Source: Escherichia coli (GTDB lineage: Bacteria; Pseudomonadota; Gammaproteobacteria; Enterobacterales; Enterobacteriaceae). From it: a stretch of 64,000 bases of DNA. The DNA lies in the NCBI RefSeq assembly GCF_030384885.1, contig NZ_CP128614.1. One strand, 5' to 3'. Shown piece by piece: positions 54,001-60,000 of this stretch. Within the stretch, counting starts at the first letter, position 1, and each line of letters opens with the position of its first letter. Made by a program: the position numbers.

Positions 54001-57000
54001 CACCAGCGGGATTAAGATATGTTTGTGTTGCAGGTTTGATATTCCGAACAGCCTTATTGGTATCTGTAAATGAGTAGCTAAATACCTGAGCATGTGCCGA
54101 AGATACAGTAGCAAGGGCAGTTGCAACCATGCAGCCAATTAGAGTTTTACGCATATGATGCTCCGGGAATAGGTTATAGCCTTATTCTACGGATTCAGCC
54201 TACAAGGTCCGGTCGGATAAAGTGATAATTTGCCTGTTAAAAGAGACATCAAGTGAGAAAGCAACCAACGTACAGAATGCAAAATGGCGGCAGTGCATCT
54301 GGATGACGCAAAAGTAACTTTTTGTATCCACTTTTTTGGATTTTAGCCTTCAAAATGAGTATTCAACCAATCATAAAAGTAACTTTTGATAGACGCTGCT
54401 CCTTTATGTTTGCCAATTGTGCTGATATGTTTGTAAATTCAAGGAAGCGAGATTTTAAAAGCATCTGTTGAGTCAAATTTATGTAAAATAACAGGGAAAC
54501 CATCACTTCTAGGTTGAGGAAACCCAATGTTATACATGCTCTTATGCTGTTTTCTGATGCTCAACAGTACATTCGTTATGTTCAGAGCAATGTCTGCAAT
54601 AAGTAAAGGATCCGCTAAAGAAAACCGGTCTGAAATATCGCTGATAGTCCTAGCAACACTTGGAATCGCATCACCATTCATTGTCGCAATGATTACTATT
54701 AATGAAAGTATGACATCTAAAACAGTAACAGATTTTTCTTTGGGTGCTCAGTGGTACGGAATGGTTTCAGCGGTAGCGCTAATGGGGTTATATGCTCGAC
54801 GCGTTTGGAAAGAGAAGAAGTCCTTATTTACTGGCGCTTTCCTGGCCTCTTCCTTAATGGCCTTTATTTTTACTGACAGCCTTGTTTTCGTATCCCAGAA
54901 GGACACCGGCGTTCTGGCTACTTTCGTACTCGATAAAAACGCTGGAGATATTGATTGTAGTCGCCCGGCTATGATTGTCCATTACAGTAAAGGTGTTCCA
55001 ACGGACTGGCGTTGCCCAACCAGTATCATGTTGATGGCGTATTCTTCATATCCTTTTTTACCCTGGCCTGAGTATAGCCATGGTACCAGCCAGTCTCTTA
55101 CGGTTGTTATTGATACATTTATGGAAAACGCTGTTAATCTCAGCCAAAAATAAAAAATAAACCTCACTAGTGAGAGGTTTTATAAACCTGAGCCACCAAT
55201 CTAATTAACTCTATATTTTTGTTTTAGCTTTTTTAAAGATAGACTTACCGAATAAAACAGCAATTATAGAGCAAAGGCCTGGCGTTAGGACAAAAGCTAA
55301 TAATGCACTGCCAAAACTTGTCATTTCAGGCACCAGGAACCAGCTGATAGGCCACGTCAGGGCTGGTAAATTTAGCGGATCATAAAGCGCATGTAGAGCG
55401 CTTAACACACAGTAAAGTGCTAAAAAGCAAACTAGATAAACAACGATCCACATTTTAATTTGCTCAGCAATTTCAAATTTTGGACTGCCCATGCTTTACC
55501 TCAGTGGCTGAATATTGATGGTTAATATCTTTAATCACCCGTAAGCACTTAGTGCATACCTTAGTTCGATTTGTCTGCTTGTCCAGAGTGTATTTAACTT
55601 CAAGTTGACCTCCAGCATTAAGCAAAGTGAGCATCTCATCTTCTAACACGCTTCGGTAAATGGTCTTGGCCGAGAGTGTGCCCGGTAACGAGTACTCAAC
55701 ATAATTGTTTGAAACTCTTACCGATTTAGGGATTTTACCACTGAGCTGGGTTTCATTCGTTGAAGGCATTACAGTTACTTTAATCACAGTTGCCGGTGAC
55801 CAGAAATCCTGATAACGCACTTTATGAATTTTATCAGCTCTAAGGCCTAACCACACATTTCCGGCGATAAGAACAATAAGCAATCCATAAACTGATCGTC
55901 GAATGTTACGCCTTTTAATCACAATGTCCCCCATCCCTCAAATATCATTCTAAATAACTGCACCAGGATATCATGAGCGTAATTAATAGAATTCTTCATA
56001 ACCGGGGTTTTCAGTTGAGTTTGCGGACTCTTTACTTTGCGGTTTCTCACCCTCTAGTTGAGTATCCCTGACAGGCTTGGATTTACCCATGCTCCTCTGA
56101 AAGGTATCCATAACAAACTCAATATCTTCTTCTGGCAGGCTGGTGGGTTGGTTGCTCATAGGACTTCCTCTTGTTGAATACGTTCGGCGTACAGGATGCG
56201 AACCGAAACGGTCGTGTTTTCAAACTCGTTCTCAAAAACGTCCATCCATTCCGTCCGGAATTCTTCCCCCAAAAGGTTATCGAGCCCCTGAAGAGATAAT
56301 GGAAGAACGGCTGCTAGAGATCCCCCGGCTGCGAGATGAGATGCAGCTGCCTGGAGATGCAGCCTGGCCCGGTTATCGGCAAAAGGTGGGTTCATCACGA
56401 CATAATCAAACTTCTTCTGTTGATTAGACTTAGACCATGTGAGGAAGTCAGCTTCTGTCGTATCGTATCCCTTAGCCCGGGAGATAAGGCAATTCAAAGT
56501 ATCAAGCTCGATGCCAGTAACGATCACACCGGCAGGGAATGATTTAAGCAAATCCGCATGGCCAATATTAGGCTCCAGGAGGGTATCCCCTTCCCCTGCA
56601 CCAAGCAGGGAAGATACATATTCGCTGATTCGGCAAGATGAAGGGTAAAACTGATGCGATACAATATCAGGCATCTCCCCTATCTGGCCGATGTAACGAA
56701 TAACCTCACACGGATCATAGGAAAATGTCACATCGTATTTTGTTACTGTTGCCCCTAAGAACCGAAGGGTGTCAGCGGCAACACTCGAAGATTTGCGTTC
56801 GGCGAGAGACCCTAAAGATGTCCAGCAACTCCATTTATTGTCCCCGTCATTTTTAAACATCAGTTCAGAAAGCTGCATCCGGGTATCAAAGTCGATGCAC
56901 TGCTTAAGTACAGGGAATGCCTCCAAAGATTTCTTGCTATGAGCCATACGGTCGGCAGGTAATGCCAGCGGTACGATAGCTGATAAAATATTGTTAAGCC

Positions 57001-60000
57001 GCTCGGCGATATCAGGGTGGACGTCAATATGCATTGATCCATTTTTGTAAACCCTGAAACGAATACTGTTGCCATCGATGCAGATCCATTTTCTGAACCC
57101 CTCATGTTCGACCAACGCCTCAACCAATGATTTGGTGTTATGGATCGCCTTCACCTGTTCGCCACGGAAGAATGCGCATATAACGCGGAGCTCGCTCAGC
57201 GGTGAAATGCCAGACTCTTTAAAATCCACCCTTAATTTCTGCCAGGGGTATTTAGACGGCTCGCAAACTCCGGTAGTGATCATGCGGGTGGAGAACCCAA
57301 AAGCTTTGTTTGTCTTGTGACTGCGGCTCAGAGACTGGAAGACGTCGTAAACCCTTTCTTTAATAAATTGATTGCGGTCATTAAGCAAAGCAACGACTGT
57401 GCCCACTACAGCGTCAGCTGTGAAATCAGGGATCACCTGAGGCGGCATAATATAACGGTCGGCCGTAAACTGCTTATCCCATTCGTTACGTTTGGCATCC
57501 GACATGATAGGCAAAACATCAGTGAGTGCCATAACGCATTTCCAGTATTCTGATCTCAGAGCGTTTTCTGCGAACAAAGCATCCGCTTCTGAGATGCTGT
57601 GGTTGTAGCCTGAGAGATAAGAATAAAGTTTCTGGTGATTGTGGGTTTTGAACTGGACAGCCATGAGTTTCAACAAGCAGAGTTCATCATTATAGGACTC
57701 AACAAGATCCGCGATAATGCCGAGCTCTTTGCGCATATCTGGAAGAAATGTTTCAGGAGAGCTAACCACCAGGCTATGAGAGGTTGTTAAAGCCAGTACG
57801 CTGTGACCTGCATTATCGGGTTTAGCTTCAGAATCAAGAGATGACATTTTACCGGTCCTTTAGAAAAAACTTTTACCAGGATAGCAACGTCGCTCAGTAA
57901 CCTAATAGGTTCAGTGACACGAAAAAGTTTTTTATGTCTCTGAATAAAACTTAAAGATGTCAACTCATAGAAAGAAGCAAAAAAAAAGCCCCGCATAAAC
58001 GGGGCAAGAACGATACATGGAGGTTTAAAAAAGGCGGGCAAAAAGCCTGAATCCTTAATGACTCTGACAAAACCAGCACTTTGCCAAAAGTAAATTATTC
58101 TGCGTCCGGCTGTGGGTCAGTATCCTGATCGGTCTCTTCCCCTGCCTTCTTAGCATTTTTTTTACGTGGGTATTTTGGCTTCTCACCATTAAGTTTTGCC
58201 TGACGATTCTCCGCACGGCGAAGCTGCTTGTTCTCTGATTCTGTGATCTCTTTTGAAAGATTTCTCAACATCTCCAGAGTACTGCGGTTCAACGTAATGT
58301 TGATTTCTTCGTCAGCACTTGAATCTGTCAGCTCCGGCAATTCAATATCCCCCAGTTTCTGTAATAAGCTGGTGGTGATGAGTTTGACGCCTTCTACGGC
58401 TTTTGTGGCAATAACCGGCGGAATCCGTGCTGGCTTGAAGTCTGAAGGTCTGACTCGTACCTGACCATGTTGGGTTTTTTTCACCGTGATGCCATTCGCA
58501 TCGGCCTGCTCAAGTTCTGCGATCATCTTCTTGATACGTGAAATTGCTTCTGTTTCGCCGAGCTCATCGATCAGTGAAAGCACGTTAACATACGAAATAG
58601 CGTCAGCATGAATCCATTTCTTGATAACAACAGAACAGGTTGTCAGGCGGATAAGAGAACTGATGGTCGTCGGGCTTTTATTTTCACGTTGAGCAATTCG
58701 TTCGAGTGACCAGCCAGCAAGAGAATGTAGGCGACGATAGGACTCGCCAAGCGCAACAGGAGAAAGCGCAAGACCACGGTTACCATCAATGGTCGCGAGC
58801 TCACAGCCAATTTCATCTTCTTTAATCTCAACGCAAAGGATTGTGATGTCATGATCTTCATCACATGCCATCATTGCGGCTTTTAAACGGCAGTGCCCCT
58901 GGCGAACAAAAGGTACCCCATCAATGACACGTACTCGGATAGGGTCTACATAGTCACCTCGAATGTAGGCATTCTTGATGTTGTAGATGTGTTCTTCAAC
59001 CTCAGGGAGCTTATAGTAATCGTCACCCATTCCCATTTCGCGGGAGTTGAAGCCTGGCGTGACCTGAATTACTGAAGGGTGGATAGCCCATGCTTTCTGG
59101 TCACTTACTTCAGTACAAAGTTCAGGGTTTGCATCACGGAACTGTTTAAGCCCAGTGACGTAACGGCCTGTGCCAGTAACTACTGAAAAGGCAACATGGG
59201 CCGTTTTAAAGACCTTGTCATTAGCTTGCTGTGTAGGTTCTGTCAGTAAAACACTCATAGGGGCTCCGTTACATTTTTCTGCTTACTTTCTGCGTAGCGG
59301 GGATACTACCGAAAAAAAAATTCATAATTTTTCGCAAAAAAGGTACTTTTTGAGCCTATTCTGATTTTTTACAAAAAAAGGTGGCTCCCCATTACTTGTG
59401 ATGGCATAAAAATCGCTTCATAAACAAATACATAAATCCAAAACATAAAGTTCAGGTATAAGTGAGGAAAAATCTTATAAATCCGAAATGCTGAAAGTCA
59501 AAACTGTGCGTCTTAAACAACTTTTTTTTGCTCCCTAAGTTATTAGTTAAAGCCCGTGGTTAGGTACGATACCAGCACCTAAATTTCTCTCTCAGGTATA
59601 GACACTTTGACTCGACATCTCAGACACATGCCGATAATCAAATGGGCTGGTGGAAAAACGAAACTGATGCCTTTCATCAGCCATCACTACCCACACGATC
59701 ATAGTTGCCGGTGGGTAGAACCCTTTATAGGCGGTGGTGCCGTTTTTCTGAACATGTTTGCACAAAATGCATTGCTTGCAGATAGCAATCCAGACTTGAT
59801 CAACCTATACAGGACTATTCAAAGACAGAAAACTAACTTTATAAATCAGGTCCAAAACTTGGCGGATAAAACCTTTGTCGAAAAGGACTACTATGAGATG
59901 AGGGACCGTTTCAACAAAACCTGTATTTCTGGTCAATCGCTTCAAAGAGCGGCTTTGTTTTACTCCCTGAATCGCCTGGGCTATAACGGTATGTGCCGCT

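Follow-up and report, generated by a model that had tools for sequence, protein, structure and literature searches.

A DUF4942 protein of the IncHI2 plasmid backbone with a minimal adenine methyltransferase core

Genomic context and distribution of the gene

We investigated a gene in a 64,000-nucleotide stretch of Escherichia coli contig NZ_CP128614.1 (assembly GCF_030384885.1), hereafter the window. The gene belongs to the IncHI2 backbone and lies between RepHI2 and RepHI2A/Tra2, amid the following features:

55983..56159, minus strand: acidic 58-aa ORF, annotated as hypothetical, with its ATG overlapping the stop codon of the methyltransferase gene (ATGA)
56156..57847, minus strand: DUF4942-methyltransferase CDS of the IncHI2 backbone, complete, 563 aa plus stop (equivalent to WP_042634269.1)
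57988..58005, minus strand: terminator-like intrinsic hairpin GCCCCGTTTATGCGGGGC, then a run of 9-10 T, 3' of the upstream ParB-like gene
58095..59258, minus strand: ParB/Srx-like protein of 387 aa, the directly upstream gene
59607..60440, plus strand: divergent Dam-family GATC methyltransferase, part of the same conserved cluster

A preliminary description of the locus had proposed a large protein ending in an adenine methyltransferase, and this was borne out by the ORF listing, translation, Pfam and PHROG. The listing contains a single ATG-started ORF of 563 aa at this position, and it is a real gene of the IncHI2 resistance-plasmid backbone. Its matches to Pfam (E=1.7e-21) and PHROG (phrog_6263, full length, E=1.4e-111), together with 1108 plasmid records carrying the protein at 95-100% identity, place it far beyond chance. 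Nearly all of these records are IncHI2 plasmids, and the gene is intact in about 99% of them. RefSeq lists this exact sequence as a MULTISPECIES entry found on at least 1000 contigs, and the product name in IncHI2 records is “DUF4942 domain-containing protein”. The family is already catalogued as Pfam DUF4942 (PF13708), with no assigned function or structure, and the protein is a typical full-length member with no visible difference. The NCBIfam scan returned no meaningful family, and the PADLOC scan gave generic methyltransferase matches only. Our literature search recovered mentions of DUF4942 in four papers, each of them incidental, and nothing under the protein accession, under older product names or on IncHI anti-restriction methyltransferases.

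The gene adjoins replication genes and Tra2, and a location in a recognized leading region is not supported. The 140 nt between the hairpin and the methyltransferase ATG have a GC content of 33%, and the position of this stretch behind a terminator-like hairpin implies that the gene has its own promoter; a search for a sigma-70 promoter upstream gave no convincing consensus match. Downstream, the ATG/stop overlap suggests that the 58-aa ORF is probably translationally coupled to the methyltransferase gene; this ORF is not kept beside distant homologues. The pairing with the ParB-like gene, in turn, recurs on another large plasmid with a homologue that is 47% identical.

A minimal gamma-order catalytic core

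The C-terminal 167 residues form a TaqI/EcoKI-like (gamma-order) catalytic core that is complete yet minimal and has no target-recognition domain (TRD) of its own. The core and its main motifs, with motif coordinates confirmed by translation, are located as follows:

56159..56659, minus strand: minimal class I SAM-dependent N6-adenine methyltransferase core, aa 397-563 (profile, conservation and translation)
56636-56653, minus strand: motif X/TP cap QFYPSS, aa 399-404
56561-56581, minus strand: motif I LLEPNIG, aa 423-429
56381-56392, minus strand: motif IV NPPF, aa 486-489

The core starts at a conserved SHQFYP(T/S)P helix cap (aa 397-404) and continues with E447, D467-F468 and F542, so that the motifs in aa 397-563 follow the gamma order FYP-TP, LEPxxG, E, DF, NPPF, F. 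Across 136 family sequences, Q399, E425, G429, E447, D467-F468, N486-P-P and F542 show little or no variation. The core has the class I Rossmann SAM-methyltransferase fold and the linear order X (FYxTP cap)-I (ExxxGxG)-II-III-IV (N/D-P-P-Y/F)-VIII, with the residues conserved in the family. Both motifs named in the preliminary description are present, NPPF within FDYVVMNPPF; its statement that they are confined to the last 190 residues holds insofar as neither a methyltransferase motif nor a Pfam methyltransferase match occurs upstream of aa 397, while the span itself is 167 residues. The second glycine of motif I, present in 96% of the family, is replaced by Ala431 in the window's copy, and the enzyme encoded by this copy may therefore be attenuated.

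The best PDB match of the family profile is M.TaqI (E=9e-5), with the TP cap, motif I and NPPF all aligned and 26% identity over 151 aligned residues. M.TaqI and EcoKI HsdM-type (gamma) enzymes share with the core its Rossmann SAM fold, the capped FYxTP-like N-terminal helix and the motif order X-I-II-III-IV(NPPF)-VIII. However, M.TaqI has a C-terminal TRD and the HsdM type a separate HsdS partner, whereas the 563-aa protein has neither: it ends 74 aa past NPPF, which leaves no room for a C-terminal TRD, and no hsdS-like gene was found among the neighbors. It further differs from these enzymes in its N-terminal module of about 370 aa and in having no cognate nuclease.

The PHROG and PADLOC matches of the core are DNA methyltransferases and methyltransferase modules within giant phage proteins. 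The latter are 1200-3900 aa long and match at E=1e-8 to 1e-18 (among them phrog_9133, E=2.5e-18, and phrog_11358, 1e-12). Similarly, tblastn matched the core to internal virion proteins, with BLAST-level similarity confined to aa 398-493. DarB-like methyltransferase modules belong to injected polyvalent proteins of phages and plasmids (Iyer et al. 2017, PMC5512222). They have the same EcoKI/TaqI-like TP-capped core, occur in mobile elements only and have a presumed anti-restriction role. Unlike DarB-like proteins, the 563-aa protein stands alone, with no C-terminal SF2/SNF2 helicase and with DUF4942 as its N-terminal partner; indeed, Pfam scans of the 136 members found no helicase or LPD family (LPD36 included), and no sequence extends beyond the core.

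Some comparisons lean toward RNA. The Pfam matches of the core are MTS and RrnaAD, not N6_Mtase, and the top of the list of structural neighbors includes the RNA m6A enzymes METTL5, PH1948 and KsgA/Erm. We considered whether the protein, carried by mobile elements, methylates RNA (rRNA/tRNA) or the amino groups of proteins instead of DNA, with DUF4942 as an RNA- or protein-recognition module; an RNA substrate would equally explain the missing DNA motif described below. We regard this as improbable. M.TaqI, a DNA enzyme, is the best match by both sequence and profile, and the match extends to the FYxTP cap, which is typical of EcoKI/TaqI-like DNA methyltransferases (PMC5512222). The PHROG and PADLOC matches are likewise to DNA enzymes, and the family is exclusive to phages and plasmids, amid replication, ParB, SSB and other methyltransferase genes.

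A family-specific N-terminal module

The N-terminal part of about 370 residues is a family-specific module, which we divided, together with the segment leading to the core, as follows:

57758..57847, minus strand: variable N-terminal tail, aa 1-30, predicted disordered (pLDDT <50 in both models) and poorly aligned
57563..57757, minus strand: long helical hairpin, aa 31-95, acidic (pI 4.9) and poorly conserved (1.39 bits per column)
56948..57562, minus strand: DUF4942 core (PF13708), aa 96-300, pI 8.9, 2.38 bits per column
56660..56947, minus strand: small and variable alpha/beta domain, an adaptor linking DUF4942 to the catalytic core, aa 301-396, 1.57 bits per column

The preliminary description held that this part matches nothing, which the Pfam search contradicts: DUF4942 matches aa 96-290 (model positions 3-186 of 190), although the family has no function. 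Of the domain-wise searches that the description had suggested, the profile search thus identified the domain, while structure comparison found no relative of the N-terminal module among solved structures. All 136 homologues match DUF4942, and their Pfam scan revealed no other N-terminal family. The DUF4942 core is the only basic segment of the protein and its most conserved part, exceeding even the catalytic domain (2.24 bits per column, pI 4.7). Its conserved basic residues are K119, R120, R158, R165, R188, R221, R263, R265, K268 and R283. Two motifs are invariant, LSxxH(K/V)TN (HKTN at nt 57308-57319) and HxExHP...N (HIDVHP at nt 57014-57031), and S174, H177, T179, N180, H273 and N285 make up an invariant polar cluster. 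In the adaptor, G365 is nearly invariant. A possible kinship of the adaptor to the region preceding DarB-like methyltransferases is suggested by one PHROG alignment starting at aa 321, but tblastn similarity to non-family phage proteins is restricted to the core segment given above.

The polar residues also raise the question of a second activity. H177, H273 and N285, with the near-invariant D258, E/D275 and H277, lie on a beta-beta-alpha element and resemble an active site, and some phage records label homologues “RE endonuclease”, by annotation only. DUF4942 could have a catalytic activity of its own, as a nuclease or hydrolase built on the invariant His/His/Asn/Asp, which would make the protein a Type IIG/IIL-like restriction-modification or anti-defense DNA-processing enzyme. 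We consider such a bifunctional protein highly improbable; the Type IIG/IIL (MmeI-like) layout of an N-terminal PD-(D/E)XK nuclease, a gamma methyltransferase and a C-terminal TRD is not that of this protein.

Architecture and spread of the family

An exhaustive representative search recovered the same architecture, uniformly about 550 aa long, in 614 protein clusters (at 50% identity), hosted by proteobacterial plasmids, phage-plasmids and temperate phages, and the AFDB matches share this fixed architecture. DUF4942 and the methyltransferase are always found together, and their union is not a recent fusion. We also sought other DUF4942 architectures by a profile search of a 5.8-billion-protein set, which yielded mostly fragments and split genes and no alternative partner.

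The genomic contexts of the family included a prophage early operon, after cI/cro/cII, as well as SSU5-type phage-plasmids and Pseudomonas/Aeromonas temperate phages. None of the approximately 10 contexts inspected contained a nuclease neighbor. A conserved restriction partner or neighbor was sought in the same contexts and rejected, the ParB-like/Dam synteny being found only among IncHI-like plasmids, not in phages or beside distant homologues. A 584-aa gene upstream of a distant homologue proved unrelated to the ParB-like protein.

Methylomes of carrier strains

On the methylome check proposed earlier, published SMRT data exist for two carriers, and neither strain has an m6A motif attributable to the gene. 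Enterobacter hormaechei MS7884A carries a copy identical at 559/563 positions and does not differ in its m6A motifs from MS7884B, a sibling that lacks IncHI2 (PMC6981164, Suppl. Table 6). Salmonella Senftenberg ATCC 43845 carries an intact copy, and its six m6A motifs are all assigned to chromosomal genes (PMC5347186, Table 1). Since both methylomes lack such a motif, the enzyme is probably not constitutively active on double-stranded genomic DNA.

A constitutive activity would have to be concealed, as in a sequence-specific orphan dsDNA methyltransferase whose motif coincides with or lies within a host motif such as GATC and which exerts Dam/CcrM-like epigenetic control of plasmid replication, partition or transfer. 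The conserved recognition-like residues do suggest a single fixed specificity, and the gene sits between two replicons, beside ParB-like genes and a Dam gene. We nevertheless find this explanation very unlikely: no extra motif appears with the plasmid compared to without it, a second GATC enzyme next to the plasmid Dam would be redundant, and neither fold nor TRD is related to those of Dam.

Silent plasmid methyltransferases offer another comparison. M.EcoGIX and M.BceJIII stay silent while cells grow in the laboratory and target incoming DNA (Fomenkov et al. 2020, PMC7736820). As plasmid orphan m6A methyltransferases with no native-host methylome mark, a ParB-like association and a proposed role in establishment or anti-restriction, they resemble the protein described here. 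By this analogy, the protein may be a promiscuous or single-strand-specific enzyme that modifies short degenerate sites on the transferred or replicating strand, incompletely and transiently, so that motif callers miss it; DUF4942 would then attach to ssDNA or to a component of the replisome or transfer machinery and read no sequence. The two silent methylomes, the precedent of methyltransferases acting on entering ssDNA, the similarity of the core to the modules of injected virion proteins, its closest relatives, and the ParB-like gene immediately upstream, an association typical of the M.EcoGIX-like class (PMC5512222), all speak for it. Yet M.EcoGIX and M.BceJIII are beta-class DPPY enzymes from the leading region of IncI/IncF plasmids, whereas the 563-aa protein has NPPF in gamma order, not the DPPY motif IV, an unrelated N-terminal module, and a place in the IncHI2 backbone adjacent to replication genes and Tra2, where a leading region is not supported. 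The invariant polar cluster also fits specific recognition better than promiscuity, and we judge this alternative unlikely.

A proposed conditionally active orphan methyltransferase

Overall, we tentatively favor, with somewhat less than even confidence, an orphan DNA adenine methyltransferase carried by mobile elements and active under certain conditions, with DUF4942 responsible for binding DNA and choosing the target. The earlier interpretation would stand for the methyltransferase and, conditionally, for N-terminal target recognition, while the N-terminus proved to be already catalogued. Under the reading we favor, the protein would be an orphan SAM-dependent N6-adenine DNA methyltransferase belonging to the conserved IncHI2 backbone, and DUF4942 its nucleic-acid-binding, target-selecting part, holding the substrate for the acidic catalytic core. 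The invariant Ser/His/Thr/Asn/His/Asn cluster suggests one conserved target or substrate form family-wide, and the variable segments aa 31-95 and 301-396 would serve as scaffold and adaptor. Activity would probably be conditional, arising at low temperature, with H-NS silencing lifted, or alternatively during establishment, as the element enters or begins replicating in a new host. By analogy with other orphan plasmid and phage methyltransferases, its role may be to mark or protect element DNA against host restriction.

In favor of conditional activity we counted the gene's own AT-rich upstream region behind a terminator and the precedent of M.EcoGIX and M.BceJIII. Counted against the reading as a whole were the RNA m6A structural neighbors, the MTS/RrnaAD matches, Ala431 and the lack of a demonstrated leading region.

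A bolder and rather unlikely proposal is that DUF4942 is an undescribed substrate-selection or catalytic module, which either limits a minimal methyltransferase to a special DNA state (entering, replicating or single-stranded) or adds a second activity. The family would then represent a widespread stealth methylation, unseen in methylome surveys, by which proteobacterial plasmids, phage-plasmids and temperate phages establish in new hosts.

Implications

The gene is a conserved part of the backbone of IncHI2 plasmids, which rank among the chief carriers of mcr-1, mcr-9, blaIMP and heavy-metal resistance. The family, with more than 600 clusters at 50% identity, provides a cheap and well-defined test case: its putative recognition module has a novel structure and surpasses the catalytic core in conservation, and standard methylomes do not reveal its activity. 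If the protein is an ordinary site-specific methyltransferase repressed at 37 °C, the gain would be modest, namely one further specificity for REBASE and a role for a single DUF. A methyltransferase of the establishment phase would help explain how these very large plasmids pass between Salmonella, E. coli, Enterobacter and Klebsiella despite restriction barriers.

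The methyltransferase core and its flanks

In the ORF listing of the window, the gene is a single ORF with an ATG start. Its immediate surroundings comprise the following features.

56156-57847 (-): DUF4942-methyltransferase gene, 563 aa
55983-56159 (-): strongly acidic 58-aa ORF, hypothetical in RefSeq, whose start overlaps the methyltransferase stop codon as ATGA
57988-58005: intrinsic terminator-like hairpin, 3' of the upstream ParB-like gene

The methyltransferase gene probably has its own promoter, as the hairpin is followed by 140 nt at 33% GC before the ATG. The acidic ORF is not conserved beside distant homologues.

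Translation bore out the LLEPNIG (aa 423-429) and FDYVVMNPPF (reaching aa 489) motifs of the preliminary description. The C-terminal methyltransferase it placed in the last 190 residues is present but smaller, spanning 167 residues that start at aa 397 with the conserved SHQFYP(T/S)P cap. Pfam matches to this domain are weak (MTS, 1e-4; N6_Mtase, 4e-3); the top PDB match of the family profile is M.TaqI (E=9e-5), with the TP cap, motif I and NPPF aligned. Its sequence marks the domain as the EcoKI/TaqI-like core that Iyer et al. 2017 (PMC5512222) described, in which the N-terminal helix is TP-capped. Consistent with this assignment, it matches methyltransferase modules of internal virion proteins and of phage proteins 1200-3900 aa long (e.g. 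phrog_9133 at 2.5e-18). Q399, E425, G429, E447, D467-F468, N486-P-P and F542 show little or no variation across 136 diverse homologues, and a predicted functional amino-group methyltransferase under purifying selection is well supported. Of these homologues, 96% have glycine at the second Gly of SAM-binding motif I (GxG), where the IncHI2 copy has Ala431 (codon 56555-56557) and a 62%-identical homologue also has Ala; the substitution could attenuate activity.

The protein ends only 74 residues past NPPF, so it has no C-terminal target-recognition domain (TRD), the defining feature of gamma-class architecture. Thus, although predicted to work like TaqI/EcoKI-type N6-adenine methyltransferases, it falls outside that class architecturally, having neither a C-terminal TRD nor an S subunit. 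DarB-like modules have a related core, but the DUF4942 protein lacks their helicase and LPD36.

A conserved N-terminal DUF4942 module

The N-terminal part, unrecognised in the preliminary description, makes the protein a straightforward member of Pfam DUF4942 (aa 96-290, E=1.7e-21). This match recurred in 136/136 homologues, across which a Pfam scan found no other N-terminal family. The structure predicted for aa 1-401 from the 136-sequence alignment was confident (pLDDT 87, pTM 0.82). Segments and their conservation are as follows.

aa 1-30: disordered tail (predicted model)
aa 31-95: helical hairpin (predicted model), 1.39 bits per column
aa 96-300: alpha/beta DUF4942 core (predicted model), 2.38 bits per column
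aa 301-396: small alpha/beta domain (predicted model), 1.57 bits per column
aa 397-563: methyltransferase core, 2.24 bits per column

The DUF4942 core is the sole basic segment (pI 8.9, versus 4.7 for the methyltransferase), with about 10 conserved Arg/Lys, and W102, L173, S174, H177, T179, N180, H273 and N285 are invariant in the family alignment. This module is probably the nucleic-acid-binding, target-selecting part, joined to a catalytic core that by itself would be unable to recognise DNA; the invariant polar cluster suggests one target or substrate form family-wide. That DUF4942 is instead catalytic, making the enzyme bifunctional, seems highly improbable.

Distribution on plasmids and phages

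An exhaustive search with aa 1-394 returned 614 clusters at 50% identity. Among the best 150, nearly all members are 500-580 aa with the domain at the same position, indicating an ancient, fixed architecture and not a local fusion. The conserved N-terminal module is well supported as an obligate partner of the core. Members occur on IncHI1, IncHI2, pQBR103 and other proteobacterial plasmids, SSU5-type phage-plasmids, and temperate phages of Pseudomonas, Aeromonas and Marinomonas; one lies in a prophage early operon, straight after cI/cro/cII and ahead of DnaT/RusA. No context examined held an obvious nuclease partner, which argues for an orphan enzyme. This status, and confinement of the family to mobile elements, are well supported.

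At 95-100% identity, the gene was found in 1108 of 72,556 plasmid records, most of them conjugative, from Escherichia, Salmonella, Enterobacter, Klebsiella and Citrobacter; in 1097 of the records a single stretch covers 80% or more of it. The identical protein is listed in RefSeq as MULTISPECIES and occurs on no fewer than 1000 contigs. On pSTM6-275 (IncHI2A, MOBH, MPF_F) the gene bears the annotation "DUF4942 domain-containing protein", with RepHI2 and a gene for an Ig-like protein downstream of it. Upstream, two ParB-like genes bracket a divergent Dam gene, two hypothetical genes and a zinc-finger-like gene; RepHI2A, an initiator of the RepB family, and the Tra2 region lie farther out. The corresponding loci of the window, for which the RefSeq product names of the Ig-like and RepHI2 genes come from a matching plasmid, are listed here.

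58095-59258, 60449-61306, 61538-62254, 62251-62451, 62469-63524 (all -): two ParB/Srx-like, one zinc-finger-like and two hypothetical genes, a conserved backbone cluster flanking Dam and the DUF4942 gene
39073-41490 (-), 45084-47504 (+), 51698-54154 (-): three Ig-like-domain proteins, ~805-818 aa, around RepHI2 (49502-50590)

An unrelated 195-kb contig keeps the entire ParB...Dam...ParB-like-DUF4942 synteny around a homologue of 47% identity, which suggests that the cluster is a functional module; among the contexts compared, the synteny is not kept around distant members. In a few IncHI2 plasmids (e.g. NZ_CP110525.1 and NZ_LC567843.1) IS2 splits the gene, so that, in those hosts at least, the plasmid can survive without it.

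Elsewhere in the window, segment 8719-21350 is missing from most IncHI2 backbones and matches Klebsiella plasmids at 94% identity.

9085-10191, 12249-12719, 12706-14475, 14475-15776, 15776-16846 (all -): type II CBASS operon (phospholipase effector, CD-NTase, Cap2 E1/E2, Cap3 JAB) and a HEC-08/DUF3644 protein, carried by this segment
6887-8842 (-): DndC-like PAPS-reductase family protein, 651 aa, ending near the 8719 insertion boundary

The pSTM6-275 counterpart of the latter has 794 aa, so the window copy may be truncated or start differently.

Methylomes of carrier strains

The methylome check proposed in the preliminary description had in effect been made already, in two published carrier strains, and revealed no m6A motif attributable to the gene. 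Plasmid pMS7884A (IncHI2) of E. hormaechei MS7884A carries an intact copy (559/563 identical), and the sibling MS7884B lacks the plasmid. Both strains showed GATC, CCYAN9TGAY/RTCAN9TRGG and CAGCNAC, with no extra m6A motif in MS7884A (PMC6981164, Suppl. Tables 6-7). Similarly, in S. Senftenberg ATCC 43845, which holds an intact copy on pSSE-ATCC-43845, each of the six m6A motifs was attributed to a chromosomal gene (PMC5347186, Table 1). That the enzyme instead methylates RNA or protein, which would leave no such motif, seems unlikely.

The gene may have been little expressed in these strains, and motif callers overlook degenerate, low-occupancy or strand-specific methylation; a single-stranded-DNA-specific or promiscuous enzyme is unlikely, if less so than the other alternatives. 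A motif nested within GATC would also be hidden, and a constitutive regulator with such a hidden motif appears very unlikely. Ala431 is a further caveat on this silence. The window encodes three further predicted methyltransferases.

59607-60440 (+): Dam-family GATC enzyme
32819-34069 (-): 416-aa protein with weak beta-class N6/N4 methyltransferase matches
42806-43630 (+): 274-aa PrmC/HemK-like methyltransferase

No additional m6A motif from any of these is detectable in the published methylome of an IncHI2 carrier, although host Dam would mask GATC.

Much of IncHI biology is thermo- or H-NS-regulated. The silence of the carrier methylomes suggests conditional activity, under thermo- or H-NS regulation or else restricted to establishment in the way of M.EcoGIX (PMC7736820), an enzyme alike in methylome behaviour and different in class. 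We tentatively favour, at somewhat less than even confidence, the composite reading of an orphan methyltransferase with DUF4942 as target selector, a single substrate form and conditional activity. The protein comes as a moderate surprise, since its sequence family is already on record; as an orphan methyltransferase, it carries a probable recognition module that is uncharacterised, novel in structure and conserved to an unusual degree.
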